A stretch of 25,559 nt of DNA from an uncultured Methanosarcinales archaeon. GTDB lineage: Archaea; Nanobdellota; Nanobdellia; Woesearchaeales; DATGWN01. Made by a program: the position numbers and the translations under genes. Positions 11,881 through 18,161 of the stretch are shown here, in pieces; position 1 is the stretch's first letter, and the number at the start of each line of letters is the position of its first letter. The stretch lies in assembly GCA_964525725.1 (NCBI GenBank), contig CAZGJY010000001.1, positions 1-25,559 on the forward strand, read 5' to 3'. The notes beneath the pieces are model-generated. The model searched no databases. It was given only the letters and a program-made list of their open reading frames with translations, and was not told the origin of the DNA.

Positions 11881-12067
11881 TGTGACCACCTTTTTATTTT
11901 CTTGACCAATCGCACACGCAGCGCTGCGATAGTCATCGCGATTAGTCTGAGCATCAGAACTTGATTTATATAACTTTCTTTCGTGATATGCAAGAGAAGC
12001 TCAAGTATGCTCTCACACACTTATTTCTTGCCGCGCTACTTATTGTTACGCACTTATCATTCATATC

Positions 12068-12312
12068 TCATTTTTCTTTTATTTTCCGTATTTCTCTTTT
12101 TTTGCTGAAGGTGAGAATAAAGATAGTAATGGGAGCGATGATGATGAAAACGATGACCAAGGAAGAATAGAGCGCAGTGCGAGAATGAGGAAAATAAGAA
12201 AAACGACGCACGCACAACAACAGACGAATAAGAGATGGCAGGAAAGAAACCAAGAGCGCGAAGGAATCGCGTCGTTGCTGCACCGTTCAAGTATCGCGCC
12301 AGTTATACTCAT
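12068..12312 (-). CDS. Possible small membrane protein, reading frame unresolved
   Basis: ATG 12312 has an SD-like GGTGTGA and encodes VVFLIFLILAL. The best coding-like C-terminus (LVIVFIIIAPITIFILTFSKKREIRKIKEK) is in the 12068..12283 frame. Confidence 0.3.
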
Positions 12313-12330
12313 TTCACACCCATGTTGCTA

Positions 12331-12912
12331 TTATCTCCAGCTGCGGAATAATTCCCATACTTTCTCGTCAGAGATTGGCTGCCATTCTTTGTGCATGACG
12401 TCGAATTGCTTGTATGCGATGTCTACCAAGAGCGGATATGATGTCGGGGCTTTGAGTTGCCAAAAATGAGCGCTTGTTGCGCTTGTGTTCACGAGCGCGC
12501 ATGCATGGTTGACTTGCCGACCGTGGCAATCAACTTTGACAGAGACATAATTCGCCGACAAACCGGCAAAGCGCGCCATCGAGATATAGAGATATGCCAT
12601 CTCTCCGCATATCCCTTGCTTATTCTCCCAGACTTCAATACCTGCGACATAATCACGGTCTGCCGCACGTCGATCTTTTCCGTATCCGATGCGCTCGACA
12701 AGATAATCAAATATTATTCTCGGACGCTGCTCTTTTGGAAGACGGCTGAAGACGCTCGCACGACGGACGAGCTGCGCATCAAGCATCGTCGGCAGCGAAA
12801 CGCTCGCGTCGCAGATCGCAATGCGATAGCCTGCGGCGAGCGCTGGGTTGAGGAGCACGGGCTGATCGATATTTGCAAGGAGCGTCGCTATATTCGTGCG
12901 AGATGCGTTCAT
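12331..12912 (-). CDS. Transglutaminase-like (Cys-His-Asp) domain protein
   Basis: QGICGEMAYLYISMARFAG (Cys), VNHACALV (His), LLVDIAY (Asp). AAGGA SD upstream. Confidence 0.82.
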   Translation of the reverse strand: MNASRTNIATLLANIDQPVLLNPALAAGYRIAICDASVSLPTMLDAQLVRRASVFSRLPKEQRPRIIFDYLVERIGYGKDRRAADRDYVAGIEVWENKQGICGEMAYLYISMARFAGLSANYVSVKVDCHGRQVNHACALVNTSATSAHFWQLKAPTSYPLLVDIAYKQFDVMHKEWQPISDEKVWELFRSWR

Positions 12913-12955
12913 GCTTTTTCCTTATGTTCCATCATTTCTGCTCTCAACTCTGCCC

Positions 12956-14047
12956 TCAACTTTTTCTGCTGTAGATTGCGCGCTCGAGCCCGTTTCCGAC
13001 AGATGTCCGACGTGAGAGGATTGCGCCGTCGAGACGCTGCAAGGCATTCGCGACGGATGTCTGCATCGAGTCGGTGAACCGCTGCATTGATTCAAGACCT
13101 GCTAGAATGTTGCCAAGCTGTTCTGCGCTGCAGCCGAGCGTGAAGTATGACGACGAGATCCGCTCGAGCATCGACGCATAGCTGCATGTGTCGACTGCAA
13201 TCTTTTTAGCGGTTGCAAGCGAACCAAGGAGCAAAAGCTCGACAGCATATGAATGAAGCAGATATTCTTTCTTGCGGGCGATTGCGCGTTGCGCGACGGA
13301 ATGGTCACCTTGCGCAAGAATTGTGCTGATACGTTGGTCATGTGTCGAAAGAAATGCATTTCGTTCTGTTGGTTCCTCGATCGACTGTTGCAATTGCTGC
13401 AGCAGCGCAGCCGGCGAGAGCGTATTCATCGTTTCGGCGAACAGATTTTTTGCGCCTTCCAGCTTGTGCAATTCGTTGCCGAGCGTGAAAACATAGCTGT
13501 GTGTTTTCTTCAGCTCGCTCTGCGTCTGACCGATGATCTCATTGATGCAGATGCTGTATTCGTGCATATGTTGCATCTGCAGATTCACCGTTTCGCGCAG
13601 ATTCGGCACTTGATAATCGACGCCGACGATGCGCAAGAGTCTGCTTGCGCCAGAATAATATGCGTTTGCCATCGACGAGTTTGCTGCGCGCATGCCTCGA
13701 TTGAGAATTATCTGCGTCTGTGCGATTTCTTGTGCGATGTCAGAGAGCCGCTCGTAACCATTCCTTATGCTGAGCAGAGAATCTCCGCTCTGATTTGTCT
13801 GACCCGTTTGCGATGCTCTCGGCGTCATTATCATGTCGAGAACTGGGTGCGCAGAAAATGACGCGACAGGTTGTATAATTGGCCGAGCAATTGCGATATC
13901 TAGTCGTTCTTGTTGTCTATTGCATTGCAAGTCTATTCTCTTTGCAAGTCCGTCGCGCAGCAAGAGAATAGTATCTTTCGTAGTCTGTGCATTTTGTGAT
14001 AGTATTTTCTCTTGCGGAGTGTTCGTTTTTGTTTCTGCGTCAGCCAT
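12956..14047 (-). CDS. Hypothetical, largely alpha-helical / coiled-coil protein
   Basis: 363-aa ORF, Gln/Leu/Ala-rich heptad-like stretches, no catalytic motif seen. Confidence 0.8.
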   Translation of the reverse strand: MADAETKTNTPQEKILSQNAQTTKDTILLLRDGLAKRIDLQCNRQQERLDIAIARPIIQPVASFSAHPVLDMIMTPRASQTGQTNQSGDSLLSIRNGYERLSDIAQEIAQTQIILNRGMRAANSSMANAYYSGASRLLRIVGVDYQVPNLRETVNLQMQHMHEYSICINEIIGQTQSELKKTHSYVFTLGNELHKLEGAKNLFAETMNTLSPAALLQQLQQSIEEPTERNAFLSTHDQRISTILAQGDHSVAQRAIARKKEYLLHSYAVELLLLGSLATAKKIAVDTCSYASMLERISSSYFTLGCSAEQLGNILAGLESMQRFTDSMQTSVANALQRLDGAILSRRTSVGNGLERAIYSRKS

Positions 14048-14246
14048 TGTTCATGCTCTCATATGTTTGTGTTCTTCAGCACAGTTCTATCCGTCCCTAT
14101 TCGTTTCGCTTTTTGTATATTTGGTGACCTAAACCGCAAAATTGGATGACTCGTAATGTTGTTATTGCAATAATGCCGAAAAAATCAACTAGCTCAATGA
14201 ACTAGCGTAATCGATATAAACCATGAAATTTGCTGAATGAATCAGA

Positions 14247-15119
14247 ATGGTATTGCAAACAGTCAGCGGTTTTTTCATCGGACCGCTCTACATTTATTTC
14301 TATGGCATCGTGTATGCTGTTGCTGCGCTTTGTTTGTATTGGTTCCTCTCGAAAAAGAAAGATGCAATCGGAATCACGCAACGCGCTGTTGATGAGTTGA
14401 TCATCGCGGTGCTCATCGGTCTCATCGTCGGCGGGCGCATCTTCCATTTCCTCATCAATGATCCCGGCGTTTTCATCAGGGATCCACTGGAACTGTTTCT
14501 GATCCGCAACGGCGGAATGTCGTTCTTCGGAGCGTTGATCGGTATTCTATGTGGCGTCGGGATCTGGTATCGTATTCAGCTCAAACTGCAAGGTGGAAAT
14601 AATATTGTTGCAAACAGATTGGAGATGAAACGGAAAATGCTGATGATCCTCGACTTGGGAAGTCTTGTCGTCTGCATTGCACTCATCTTCGGTCGGATCG
14701 CGAATTTCCTCAATCAAGAATTGGTCGGACGGATCGCTGACCCAAAACTTGTGCCGTGGTGCGTCAATTTCGCGACGGCGAGCGGTTGCCGTCATCCGTA
14801 TCAATTGTATGCAGCTGTGTCACATCTGCTGCTTGCGGTTGTTTTACTTGTCCTTTATTTTCGCAACGCAAGAACTGGGACAATCATCTATACGTTTTTG
14901 TTCGGCTACGGCGTGCTGCGCTTTGTGACGGATTTCTGGCGAGAGGATCCAATCGTCGCGCTTGGTCTGACGGCGTGGCAGTTTTTTGCGATAGTTCTTG
15001 CCATTGTCGGTGGCTATTTACTTGTTCGCCATCTGCGACAAGGTAATCATAGTGAGAATGAGTCACAGACTCAAGCAAATGTGCAACAGGTACATAAACA
15101 TCATAAACGCAAAGATTAA
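14247..15119 (+). CDS. lgt: Prolipoprotein diacylglyceryl transferase (bacterial-type Lgt)
   Basis: FYG, VGGRIF, GGMSFFGA, GRIANFLNQELVGR, RHPYQLY, YGVLRFVTDFWR, with multiple TM segments. Confidence 0.9.
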   Translation: MVLQTVSGFFIGPLYIYFYGIVYAVAALCLYWFLSKKKDAIGITQRAVDELIIAVLIGLIVGGRIFHFLINDPGVFIRDPLELFLIRNGGMSFFGALIGILCGVGIWYRIQLKLQGGNNIVANRLEMKRKMLMILDLGSLVVCIALIFGRIANFLNQELVGRIADPKLVPWCVNFATASGCRHPYQLYAAVSHLLLAVVLLVLYFRNARTGTIIYTFLFGYGVLRFVTDFWREDPIVALGLTAWQFFAIVLAIVGGYLLVRHLRQGNHSENESQTQANVQQVHKHHKRKD

Positions 15120-15194
15120 AAGCAGTGTTGCTGATTATCACATCATAGTACGTTATTATCAAAAAATTATAATCATGTTTGAAAGAGGAATTCT

Positions 15195-16505
15195 GTGGTC
15201 ACTATAAAATCTAAAAACACGAAAATACATTCAAGCGCAAAAGCGACTCAGCGAACGAAATCAAAATCGAGCGGCAACAGCAAAAATATTGTTGATATGA
15301 CTGCATGGGTTGTTGCGAAACGGACGATCACGGCATCTGCTGTCCGTGGCAAACGTGTTCTTATCCGCTGCGATTATAATGTGCCGATAAAGAATGGCGT
15401 GATCGGCGATGATCTTCGTATCCGCGCAAGCTTGACGACAATTTCGTTTTGCCTGAAAAATGGTGCGAAACAGCTCATTCTTGTTTCTCATCTTGGTCGA
15501 CCAACAGAGAAAAATAAAGAGGACTCGCTGGCTCCGATCGCCAAACGACTTTCAGAATTACTGCGCGAAAATGTCGTTCTTGCACCGTCATGTTTTTATT
15601 CTGAATTTACTGCGCTCGGCGCAAATGCTGTGAATGCCAAAGTTGTGTTGCTTGAGAACGTCCGATTCCATCTACAAGAAGAGAAGAATGATGTGGCATT
15701 TGCAAAGCAAATGGCGCAAATCGGCGATATCTATGTCAACGACGCATTTGGTACTGCGCATCGTGGTCATGCGTCAAACAGCGCGATAACTCGCTTCTTA
15801 CCATCGTACGTCGGGCTCTTGATGCGCAATGAATTAGCAAAGCTTGGCCTGGTGACGTTCAAACCGAAACGACCGCTTGTTGTCATGCTTGGCTTCGCCA
15901 AGATTTCTGATAAACTTGATGCGCTCACTGAATTACTCAAGCATGCAGATATCGTTTTGCTCGGCGGCGCTGTCGCTTTCACATTCCTTGCTGCGCAAGG
16001 GAAAGAGATCGGGAAAAGCAAAGTTGAGTTGGACAAGATTCCTCTTGCTCGGACTTTGCTGCGCAAATATCCGACTAAAATTATTCTGCCGCTCGATGTC
16101 GTTTGCGGAACAGGCATCGATTCGCCGAAGTCGCTCATTTTCTCTGTCGAACATATTCCGCCGGATCTCGCAGGATATGATATTGGTCCGCAGACTGTTG
16201 CGTTGTTTGGTTCGTATCTTGAAACAGCGAAAACAGTATTCTGGAACGGACCGGTGGGCGTTTTTGAGCATCCGCCGTTTGATTTGGGAACGAATGAACT
16301 GGCTCTCGCTCTTGCGCGTGTGACTAGATCACGCGGCGTACTATCTATAGTAGGCGGCGGCGACACTGCGTCGGCCGCGGCGCATGCTGGCGTTGCCGAA
16401 AAGCTGACGCATATCTCGACTGGCGGCGGCGCATCACTCGAATTCATGGAAGGAAAACCGCTTCCTGCAATATCTGCGATATATAAGTCGCAGCGCCGCA
16501 AATAA
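15195..16505 (+). CDS. pgk: Phosphoglycerate kinase (bacterial-type)
   Basis: RCDYNVP, SHLGRP, LLENVRF, YVNDAFGTAHR, WNGPVGVFE, GGGDT, STGGGASLEFMEG. GAGGA SD lies 5 nt before the GTG at 15195. Confidence 0.95.
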   Translation: MVTIKSKNTKIHSSAKATQRTKSKSSGNSKNIVDMTAWVVAKRTITASAVRGKRVLIRCDYNVPIKNGVIGDDLRIRASLTTISFCLKNGAKQLILVSHLGRPTEKNKEDSLAPIAKRLSELLRENVVLAPSCFYSEFTALGANAVNAKVVLLENVRFHLQEEKNDVAFAKQMAQIGDIYVNDAFGTAHRGHASNSAITRFLPSYVGLLMRNELAKLGLVTFKPKRPLVVMLGFAKISDKLDALTELLKHADIVLLGGAVAFTFLAAQGKEIGKSKVELDKIPLARTLLRKYPTKIILPLDVVCGTGIDSPKSLIFSVEHIPPDLAGYDIGPQTVALFGSYLETAKTVFWNGPVGVFEHPPFDLGTNELALALARVTRSRGVLSIVGGGDTASAAAHAGVAEKLTHISTGGGASLEFMEGKPLPAISAIYKSQRRK

Positions 16506-16599
16506 GCTGAATAGAGGCTTTCTTTGTTATTTTGCAATGTTTTAGCCAATTCTACCTACAAAAGATTAATTAACGAGCGTGTCTTTCTTTTGTTTTCCG

Positions 16600-16848
16600 A
16601 TGGTAAAAAAGCGTTCTCACAAGAAAATGAAGAAATCAGGTTTCGCCCTTAAAAAAACGAAGAAGAAAGCATCTAAAAAAAGCTCACTTGCAAAAAAATC
16701 CCGTAAAAAGGGCGCAGTTGCAAAAAAAGTACGAAGACCGGTTATCAAACGAGTTCCGAAACCGCAAGTCACGTTCATCCCTGAGCCTTGGTCCAAAGTC
16801 GCGAAGTACAAGAAGATCAAGAAAGATGGTTATGGCGGTTATTGGTAA
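16600..16848 (+). CDS. Small, very basic Lys-rich protein (82 aa)
   Basis: 27 Lys and 5 Arg against 2 acidic residues (my count), ending KKDGYGGYW. ATTAATTAA upstream and a T-rich tract after the stop. Confidence 0.75.
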   Translation: MVKKRSHKKMKKSGFALKKTKKKASKKSSLAKKSRKKGAVAKKVRRPVIKRVPKPQVTFIPEPWSKVAKYKKIKKDGYGGYW

Positions 16849-16952
16849 TTTTTAGGATTTTTTCTTTGAGTTTTATTTCTTGGATGATGCATTTGTTATT
16901 TTAGGTAGTCATAGGCAGTACTTATTTAAAACAAACCGTTGCAAATAGTATA

Positions 16953-18161
16953 ATGACTGATTCGCAAATCTTGGCGCCATTCTTAAGACGTGCTATTGAA
17001 TTTTTGAATAGTCTTAAAATTAAACTGAACGACAAGCCTGATGAAATTACCGAAAAATTAACAATTATCATACAAGTAGATCGGCAAATCACGCAAAGAA
17101 TTTTAGACTTGCGAGCCACGCAAATCCATCCTGAACTCTACAAAGAAATTTATGACTTTCTTGACTCATTCCAGAATCAAATAAGGAGATTATTAGCACG
17201 AAAGGTTGCTGCATCAGACATATTAAGTCTGGCAAAAGACTTAGATCGTTTAATTTCGCACCTTAACCAAATAATTTTCCTTGAGGAAAGAAATCAGGCA
17301 ATCGCTGCAAAGACTCAGTTTAGTAGAGATGTTTGCCATCGATTTGCTCAGCAATTTGATCAAAATGGCTATTATTTTGAAAACATAAATCAAAGAAATG
17401 CATTTTACCAGCTGGTGCAAATCGTTGAAGAGAGTTTACAGTTACCGTTAACCGCAGATCGAGGGCAAGCAAGTCTAAGATTTCGAGCAGTCCTTGATGC
17501 GTACTTTCCTACTGCCGGCATTCCAACAAATTCCCCCTCGTCAAATCATAAGTTTTGGCGTGCAAGTGAAGACAAAGATTATTTTTTGAAAGCGTTAAAG
17601 TCCTTAAAAAATAAAGGATATCTCGATATTTTGCAAGGATTGTTCACCGTTGATCTAGGGTGCGGCACGGATAATGTTGTCGACTACTATGCTCTTCATT
17701 CGTTTATTAAAAATGCAATATACATCGGGGTTGATTTAGACATTAGAAACTTCGTTATGCGATTTATTTGCACACGATACGGGGACCATACAACCGAAGA
17801 CTTTCTGCAAAAGGTGGATATTGTTGGAGATAATTTTGGATTCACGGATCTTAAGTTCAAAAAGTTGGATGGATATGTTCTGGCTGATATGCACAAACTT
17901 CCGCTTCCGGGCGATTGTGTTGGCCTGTTACTTGTCAATTATACTTATACTGATAATTACAAGCGTGACCTAAAAAATCGAGGGCAGTTCGTCGGCGCTA
18001 TAAATAACAACTTGTTGGTTCACGAAGTATTAAGAATATTATGCGAGGGAGGAATTTACCTCACCAATAATGTAGGCAGCAGTATTGGTGGGCTTGGCGT
18101 TTACCAAAAGAAAAATGGAGCATTAGTTGATCTGAGTCATGAGCTAGGTACGATTTACTGA
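16953..18161 (+). CDS. Helical N-terminal domain fused to a class I SAM-dependent methyltransferase domain
   Basis: VDLGCG (motif I), YIGVDLD, LADMHKLPLPGDCV, EVLRILCEGG in the C-terminal half. AT-rich, with TATTTAAA ending 22 nt before the ATG. Confidence 0.8.
   Translation: MTDSQILAPFLRRAIEFLNSLKIKLNDKPDEITEKLTIIIQVDRQITQRILDLRATQIHPELYKEIYDFLDSFQNQIRRLLARKVAASDILSLAKDLDRLISHLNQIIFLEERNQAIAAKTQFSRDVCHRFAQQFDQNGYYFENINQRNAFYQLVQIVEESLQLPLTADRGQASLRFRAVLDAYFPTAGIPTNSPSSNHKFWRASEDKDYFLKALKSLKNKGYLDILQGLFTVDLGCGTDNVVDYYALHSFIKNAIYIGVDLDIRNFVMRFICTRYGDHTTEDFLQKVDIVGDNFGFTDLKFKKLDGYVLADMHKLPLPGDCVGLLLVNYTYTDNYKRDLKNRGQFVGAINNNLLVHEVLRILCEGGIYLTNNVGSSIGGLGVYQKKNGALVDLSHELGTIY

Follow-up and report, generated by a model that had tools for sequence, protein, structure and literature searches.

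Does an archaeon make lipoproteins with an enzyme of the bacterial type and, if so, from which lipid? The question is raised by a gene at positions 14247..15119 (+) of contig CAZGJY010000001.1 (GenBank assembly GCA_964525725.1), from an uncultured archaeon that GTDB places in the order Woesearchaeales. The contig was analysed at its full length of 25,559 bp, and this whole stretch is referred to as the window; it is contig C1 of the genome bin G000, which comprises 1.27 Mb in 261 contigs and is 86.5% complete, with 2.5% estimated contamination. The gene, P0001, belongs to the F-type (FNAD) sub-clade of the prolipoprotein diacylglyceryl transferase (Lgt) family, as judged by PF01790, TIGR00544 and the match to 5azb in sequence and fold. 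An earlier note, made from the letters of the DNA, had pointed to a bacterial-type Lgt in an archaeon, with Phe in place of a His that has been implicated in catalysis. We consider it probable that the gene encodes a working Lgt belonging to the archaeon itself, one that would rely on a scavenged donor lipid and a remodelled, F-type cleft.

Family, fold and residues of the window Lgt

The open reading frame begins with ATG, ends with TAA and encodes a product of 290 amino acids. The product matches the Pfam LGT profile PF01790 with an E-value of 4.7e-44 and about 150 bits (149.7-150.9, against a cut-off of 24.9) over profile positions 4-239/240, and the NCBIfam equivalog TIGR00544 with 143.6 bits against a cut-off of 118.9; the family match is thus far above chance. 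In a sequence search of solved structures, E. coli Lgt (5AZB/5AZC) was the sole relative (E 6.7e-23). A structural model of the protein was created with AlphaFold2 from 58 homologues, with a pLDDT of 93.5 and a pTM of 0.88. When this model was compared with the PDB using Foldseek, 5azb was the only significant match (E 2.4e-11, TM-scores 0.68/0.70), the next having an E-value of 0.33. The model shows the seven-transmembrane Lgt fold of 5AZB, with a smaller head domain. Sequence and fold therefore both place the product of the window gene in the Lgt family. The identification made in the earlier note stands, and so does the archaeal origin of the contig on which the gene lies.

Residues were numbered by a pairwise HMMER alignment to PDB 5azb and by a multiple alignment of 382 sequences that includes an enterobacterial Lgt. 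Apart from H103, all the residues that E. coli Lgt absolutely requires (Y26, R143, N146, G154 and R239) are kept, namely as Y19, R150, N153, G161 and R225. The codon of Y19 lies at 14301..14303 (+), and Tyr is found there in 111/113 of the nearest homologues. The Lgt signature motif GRIANFLNQELVG (14691..14729, +) includes G149, R150, N153, E158 (equivalent to E151) and G161. The segment RHPYQLYA...H (14790..14825, +) holds H183, equivalent to H196, together with Y185, A189 and H193 at the positions of S198, E202 and G207, all three of which belong to the clade signature described below. The segment GYGVLRFVTDFWRED (14904..14948, +) holds Y221 (Y235), R225, T228 (V242), D229 (E243) and R232 (R246), with T228 and D229 again part of that signature. 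In Lgt, R143 and R239 hold the phosphoglycerol head group. Among further residues reported to be needed for viability in E. coli, G99, G142, Y235 and R246 are kept as G90, G149, Y221 and R232, and G145 is replaced by Ala152. The resulting GRIANF, in place of GRLGNF, is likewise the consensus among the relatives of the window Lgt.

The His at position 103, in the HGGL motif, is absent. The corresponding motif, at the N-terminal end of the third transmembrane helix (TM3), reads GGMSFFGA (14511..14534, +), and both alignments place F94 (TTC, 14526-14528) at the position of E. coli H103. In TM7, W244-Q245 (14976..14981, +) aligns with E. coli G263-Q264, such that Trp stands where a canonical Lgt has the Gly of 'GQ'. 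The motifs had been read correctly in the earlier note, both in the three departures GGMSFFGA, QLYA and DF.R and in the presence of equivalents of Y26, R143, N146, E151, G154, H196 and R239.

A clade with phenylalanine at position 103

At the H103 position, the 113 full-length homologues that are nearest have Phe in 99 cases, His in 9, Tyr in 4 and Leu in 1; the E202 column is Ala in 97, and the E243 column Asp in 104. The equivalents of G142, R143, N146, N149, E151, G154 and R239 are found in 113/113, those of Y235 and of R246 in 108/113 each, and those of Y26, G99, G104 and H196 are invariant or nearly so. The His-to-Phe change, QLYA and DF.R, which the earlier note had presented as oddities of a possibly altered gene, are thus the consensus of a clade.

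In FastTree phylogenies, the F-type sequences form one clade of 109 members (support 0.99), with Phe at position 103 in 102 of them (~94%). Relative to 256 H-type sequences, this clade differs jointly at seven positions, namely H103F, S198Y, E202A, G207H, V242T, E243D and G263W. The Trp at the G263 position is found in 97% of the clade, against 0% of the H-type sequences; in window numbering, Y185 occurs in 100% of the clade versus 9% outside it, A189 in 86% versus 15%, and H193 in 92% versus 5%. The clade sits among DPANN Lgt in which His is combined with A202 and D243, which indicates that E202A and E243D came first and that the His-to-Phe change followed. In G089, a genome from the window's own GTDB family, Leu occupies position 103 and the remaining signature is intact. 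Judged from these alignments, the side chain at position 103 is evidently not catalytic in the F-type clade. In the E. coli structure, H103 is contacted by S261 (PMC4728403); the G263 position is in TM7, only two residues from this contact, which makes a joint repacking of the TM3-TM7 cleft plausible.

Natural variation at this position has been published for bacteria, with Tyr in Firmicutes, Trp in Actinobacteria and Phe in some species, and H103 has been termed 'essential but poorly conserved' (PMC13251419). This record bears out the remark in the earlier note that some bacterial Lgt lack the His. That note had also named an ordinary Phe variant among the findings that would tell against its reading, and this applies largely to the Phe itself. 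Thus, H103 marks the proteobacterial Lgt type rather than the whole family, and Phe at this position appears to be the normal, fixed state of an archaeal Lgt sub-lineage, with no lesion. The non-His103 enzymes of bacteria, which are the functional Lgt of their organisms (PMC13251419), resemble the window Lgt in having an aromatic residue for His and in keeping the other essential residues. The window clade differs from them in its own co-varying signature and in its place on the DPANN side of a tree that contains no labelled Firmicutes.

The frequency of the F-type was assessed in a sample of 151 genomes of the order, evenly spread over ~136 GTDB families; the counts from this sample (12/151 here, and 141/151 below) include three unpublished genomes, G112, G121 and G132, which enter the analysis only as three units of these counts. 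A DNA pattern for GGMSFFG was found in 12/151 genomes (~8%), from 12 families including that of the window, and the reversed control gave 0. Each match that was checked against the listed Lgt coordinates is inside an Lgt gene. In most of these 12 genomes, the F-type is the sole Lgt-family match. Four of them (G098, G032, G091 and G109) are also in the sample searched for LspA, and all four keep it. Most of the Lgt sequences fetched from the order's genomes, a sample biased to high scorers, are canonical, with GG[LM]SFHGG, E202 and E243.

The window copy retains 43/45 of the columns that are conserved in at least 90% of its clade, and its low Pfam score is a result of the clade signature and of a loop insertion, rather than of decay. 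This insertion, of ~17 amino acids in the TM3-TM4 loop (residues ~113-129; 14583..14633, +), occupies alignment columns that are filled in 1-6% of 112 homologues, and a comparable one is found only in the closest relatives, P0002-P0004. The periplasmic head is reduced (14760..14789, +, a gap relative to E. coli in the alignment), with ~21 residues between G161 and R182 as compared with ~41 in E. coli. W171, C172, F175 and C181 in the head are each conserved in at least 90% of this Lgt clade; the pattern W-C...F.....G-C, with C172 and C181, is nearly invariant there, and from this conservation the Cys pair may staple the head as a disulfide-linked hairpin. The C-terminal tail (residues ~266-290; 15042..15116, +) is rich in His, Lys and Gln and poorly conserved, as the occupancy of its alignment columns drops from 0.82 to less than 0.1; block mean pLDDT values there are 73-83.

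Compared with E. coli Lgt, then, the window protein has the same family and fold, and it keeps Y26, R143, N146, E151, G154, H196, Y235, R239 and R246; as with the E. coli enzyme, its genome also provides LspA and lipobox substrates. It differs at H103F, G145A, S198Y, E202A, G207H, E243D and G263W, as well as in the short head with its Cys pair, the inserted loop and the His/Lys-rich tail. It also differs in its host, an archaeon with no detectable synthesis of phosphatidylglycerol (PG) and in which Lnt was not found.

One sequence within the archaeal F-type clade, P0007, shares 45% identity with the window Lgt and comes from a 4.8-kb contig labelled 'Acidobacteriota bacterium' at NCBI. This contig is probably mis-binned Woesearchaeota.

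Archaeal context, distribution and partner genes

Archaeal genes flank the Lgt gene on both sides, and aIF2-gamma, a Nip7-like PUA protein and phosphoglycerate kinase (PGK) are encoded on the same contig. The G+C content of the gene region, 0.46, is like that of the remaining window. The PGK gene (15195..16505, +; PF00162, E 1.2e-133) is a conserved downstream neighbour, and a transglutaminase-like gene (12331..12912, -; PF01841, E 2.1e-08) is conserved on the upstream side. Synteny was checked by tblastn against G089, which is an independent and 100% complete genome. Lgt and PGK are adjacent there in the same orientation, the side of Lgt that faces away from PGK has a transglutaminase-like homologue, and aIF2-gamma, three small membrane paralogues and a kinase are found within 8 kb. 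Contigs from four runs of rhizosphere metagenomes match the window at 100% identity and span both the junction between the upstream gene and Lgt and that between Lgt and PGK; in the best run, X1, depth is roughly even across the stretch. The contig that carries Lgt is archaeal and non-chimeric. The earlier note had named a chimeric contig as one way in which its reading could fail, and, as far as this analysis reaches, the synteny with G089 and the junction-bridging contigs rule this out.

The family is widespread in the order and beyond it. PF01790 scored over its cut-off in 141/151 genomes of the order sample, in 108/115 of the high-quality ones, and also in genomes that consist of one contig. 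A second sample covered the phylum with 201 genomes, each at least 85% complete; here 184/201 were positive, including 147/153 from the window's own order and 36/47 from other orders of the class. None of four model archaea, used as control genomes, was positive for PF01790. At NCBI, many Woesearchaeota proteins are already labelled 'prolipoprotein diacylglyceryl transferase'. The statement in the earlier note that only distant Lgt homologues have been described for haloarchaeal lipoproteins is therefore correct for the literature, and not for the databases.

In the FastTree phylogeny of the 382 sequences, which is unrooted, one split (support 0.95) separates all 78 sequences labelled as DPANN from all 71 labelled as bacterial, and the window clade is on the DPANN side. 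The bacterial labels, among the matches listed, are mostly Proteobacteria, Nitrospirota and Desulfobacterota, and the bacterial sample contains one member of the Actinomycetota, one of the candidate phyla radiation (CPR), and no labelled Firmicutes or Chloroflexi. With a bacterial sample of this composition, the split fits either one old acquisition of the gene or its inheritance. Two of ten unlabelled tree neighbours were named, one as Woesearchaeota and the other as Candidatus Peregrinibacteria.

The earlier note had proposed to search the genome for lspA, lnt and lipobox proteins; the first and the last were found, and Lnt was not. LspA in G000 (PF01252, 110 bits, 181 amino acids) is encoded on contig C25, where its neighbours are aEF-1beta, aIF-1A and a gene of the archaellin type. 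Across the 201 genomes, Lgt and LspA were cross-tabulated: 177 have both, 10 have neither, 7 have Lgt only and 7 LspA only; the 10 with neither come from few families of other orders and include some 0.5-Mb genomes. A search for the N-terminal domain of Lnt, PF20154, found none in G000. The third step of lipoprotein maturation would be provided for by a full-length homologue of Lit (PF07314, 85 bits; G000:C63:1088-1582, -, the same locus as L157:968-1621), whose gene lies between those for TBP and TrmB. Lit was found in 52/61 of the order's genomes with a completeness of 95% or more and, among 14 control genomes (ten of them bacterial), in Lactococcus only. In pairing Lgt with Lit, with no Lnt found, G000 resembles many Firmicutes.

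Candidate substrates were counted with a strict motif scan of our own crude gene calls, using a residue-frequency control. Of 142 signal-peptide-like N-termini with a lipobox-like tripeptide at their end, 17 (12%) have Cys as the following residue, compared with 1.3% Cys overall; this is a ~9-fold enrichment (binomial p = 8e-12). Eight of ten lipobox proteins have no Pfam family; of the other two, one is a 698-residue protein with a ConA-like lectin domain and one has a beta-propeller domain. A loose, PROSITE-like lipobox scan was discarded, since its 1078 matches were mostly transmembrane segments.

G000 carries a second Lgt-family gene (G000:C171:1759-2577, the same locus as L002:1477-2265, +), encoding 262 amino acids with a PF01790 score of 85 bits. 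This paralogue has Cys at the position of N146, no E151 and no GGMSF[HF]G, and it keeps R143, G154, H196 and R239. In its N146C and its lack of E151 it is like the second Lgt of Mycobacterium smegmatis, MSMEG_5408 (PMC13251419), whereas the window gene itself has N146 and E151. For five or more of the order's genomes (G148, G013, G020, G143 and G056 among them), the N146C-type is the sole Lgt-family match; four of these five are in the LspA sample, and all four have LspA. Going by its residues and distribution, the N146C-type may be an active enzyme and not a copy in decay.

A TATA-like element, GATATAAA (14213..14220, +), was read from the sequence ~30 nt 5' of the ATG of the window Lgt; its placement fits a putative archaeal promoter with a very short leader. 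The stretch from 12000 to 17500 of the window is present at 100% identity, and at a depth of ~2-7x, in several rhizosphere metagenome runs from 2019, which suggests soil or the rhizosphere as the habitat of this Woesearchaeota-type organism.

Donor lipid, activity and significance

To what lipid would such an enzyme have access? A profile search of G000 found no GGGPS, UbiA-type prenyltransferase, CarS, CDP-alcohol phosphatidyltransferase, PlsY, PlsC-type acyltransferase or CdsA. G000 thus has no detectable pathway for phospholipids of either type, including the means to make its own PG as donor, and a donor lipid would have to be obtained from a partner organism. GGGPS gave only two marginal, partial matches among 61 genomes of the order that are close to complete; CDP-alcohol transferases were found in 31/61, and in neither G089 nor G098. 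Incomplete lipid pathways are common in cluster-2 DPANN, and Nanoarchaeum equitans takes its lipids from its host (PMC7414124, PMC6349945). The use of host-derived lipids, which the earlier note had offered as one reading, is thus a reasonable one. A possible link between the F-type and the missing CDP-alcohol transferase was considered and dropped, since it involved three genomes (G000, G089 and G098) against a background of 50%. In some genomes of the order, CDP-alcohol phosphatidyltransferase domains stand in tandem, two to four at a time (as at G015:C27:23476-25485 and G023:C161:15788-16789), partly in fused open reading frames of 360-400 amino acids; such domains are missing from half of the order, and the family of the window belongs to that half.

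The presence of Lit bears on the nature of this lipid. Lit, whose reaction is established in Firmicutes, takes an acyl chain that is ester-bound in the glyceryl anchor and passes it to the N-terminus. Its presence favours diacylglyceryl anchors of the ester type, with a donor similar to PG, and from this analysis we infer that the anchor is most likely a bacterial-type diacylglycerol derived from PG. In the mechanism that we propose, Lgt would take a membrane lipid with a glycerol-phosphate head group and transfer its lipid moiety to the lipobox Cys of exported proteins. LspA would then remove the signal peptide, and Lit would probably shift one acyl chain onto the new N-terminus. In the window enzyme, the TM3-TM7 cleft and neighbouring positions would have been remodelled together, at the seven positions of the clade signature.

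Several observations weigh against this reading. In E. coli, H103A, H103N, H103Q, H103R and H103Y fail to complement (PMC4728403). A residue other than His at position 103 therefore appears lethal in that background, and the case for a functional Phe form is made from conservation. Mao et al. reportedly found that G145, which is Ala in the window Lgt, is essential for viability in E. coli. In a search of sequencing runs, 12 rhizosphere metagenome DNA runs carry the stretch, and no RNA run does among those listed. The absence of lipid genes is to be read against a completeness of 86.5%, although seven families are missing, two of them also from a 100% complete relative. Finally, the proposal of an ester lipid draws on a Lit assignment made at the level of Pfam.

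Three other explanations were weighed. The failure of the E. coli mutants would be accounted for if the Phe form had lost or changed its transferase activity, as a pseudo-enzyme, a lipid-binding protein or a catalyst of some other reaction, with lipidation left to the N146C-type paralogue or to an AliA-like enzyme. The second Lgt-family gene on C171 would be consistent with such a division, as would the score of the window copy, 149.7 bits in Pfam compared with ~200-270 for most Lgt of the order. However, this score reflects the inserted loop and the clade signature; all the other essential residues are invariant in 109 distinct F-type sequences; the F-type is the sole Lgt in most of its carriers, at least four of which keep LspA; and position 103 tolerates Phe, Tyr and Leu within the clade, as in active Gram-positive enzymes that have Tyr or Trp there. 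We therefore regard a loss or change of activity as very unlikely. Still less weight, close to none, is given to bacterial contamination or a chimera joined at Lgt. That idea could appeal to the fragmented state of the bin, a metagenome product with some estimated contamination, and to the Acidobacteriota label of P0007. It is contradicted by the archaeal genes on both sides, the synteny with G089, the junction-spanning contigs from separate runs, the closed, one-contig genomes of the order that carry Lgt, and the location of LspA and Lit among archaeal genes.

The remaining explanation accepts an active enzyme and differs in the lipid. The donor could be archaetidylglycerol from an archaeal host, in which case the anchors would be diphytanylglyceryl-Cys, like those of Haloferax, and the F-type cleft would be an adaptation to an ether lipid. 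An archaeon without lipid genes of its own would suit this account, as DPANN such as N. equitans do obtain lipids from archaeal hosts (PMC6349945, PMC7414124); the seven co-varying positions do form a distinct and strongly conserved configuration, and divergent Lgt groups may use other lipid substrates (PMC13251419). Against this, most Lgt of the order are canonical (H, E, E) in genomes that are equally poor in lipid genes, which implies that the archaeal setting alone did not demand remodelling. In addition, R143 and R239, the head-group holders, are unchanged, and so are N146 and Y26. The glycerol of archaeal lipids is of the opposite stereochemistry. Lit depends on an acyl chain in ester linkage, and it is found here as well as in the F-type genomes G089 and G098. 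An archaeal ether lipid as the donor is, on balance, rather unlikely.

Two related proposals go further than the reading that we prefer, a working Lgt with a scavenged, PG-like donor, and we advance them together only tentatively. The F-type may be a re-tuned Lgt in which the role of the TM3 His was given up or passed on, a candidate for the latter being the His at the G207 position together with the TM7 Trp at G263, and its choice of scavenged lipid or of lipobox peptides could be altered. Woesearchaeota-type archaea, for their part, may anchor their surface proteins with ester lipids from bacterial partners. If true, these archaea would carry lipoproteins of the bacterial type, and their membranes might contain ester lipids too.

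Lgt has been described as 'absent from archaea' in PMC13251419, and two other papers state that neither Lgt nor Lsp has an identified or reported homologue there (PMC12462473, PMC13631571). For this reason AliA and AliB of Haloferax volcanii (arCOG02177/arCOG02178), the only described archaeal proteins of lipoprotein lipidation, are presented as the archaeal solution (PMC12462473, PMC13631571). The window protein shares with them the proposed job, that is, to lipidate the lipobox Cys of archaeal secreted proteins, as well as two Arg residues thought to bind an anionic lipid. It differs in belonging to PF01790, a family that is only marginally similar to AliA (PMC12462473), and its sequence indicates that it is not of the AliA/AliB type. 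A literature search on DPANN groups, whose scope did not extend to the arCOG supplementary tables of PMC12462473, found no paper describing an archaeal Lgt, LspA or Lit. The database annotation of these archaeal genes is already known, and the Phe variant in itself is ordinary; what is new here is the F-type sub-clade with its signature, the cross-tabulation of Lgt and LspA, and the evidence from lipid genes and Lit in G000.

For the Lgt family, the His-to-Phe change matters less than the setting in which it is found: it is a further indication that H103 does not serve as the catalytic residue in all Lgt, and the co-varying set can guide mutagenesis. For archaea, what emerges is a whole phylum of small, lipid-dependent cells with canonical Lgt and LspA and, in most of its largest order, Lit too. 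This alters the view of how archaea make their lipoproteins, contrary to papers from 2025 and 2026, and it makes the source of the membrane lipids of uncultured Woesearchaeota, bacterial or archaeal, a testable question.

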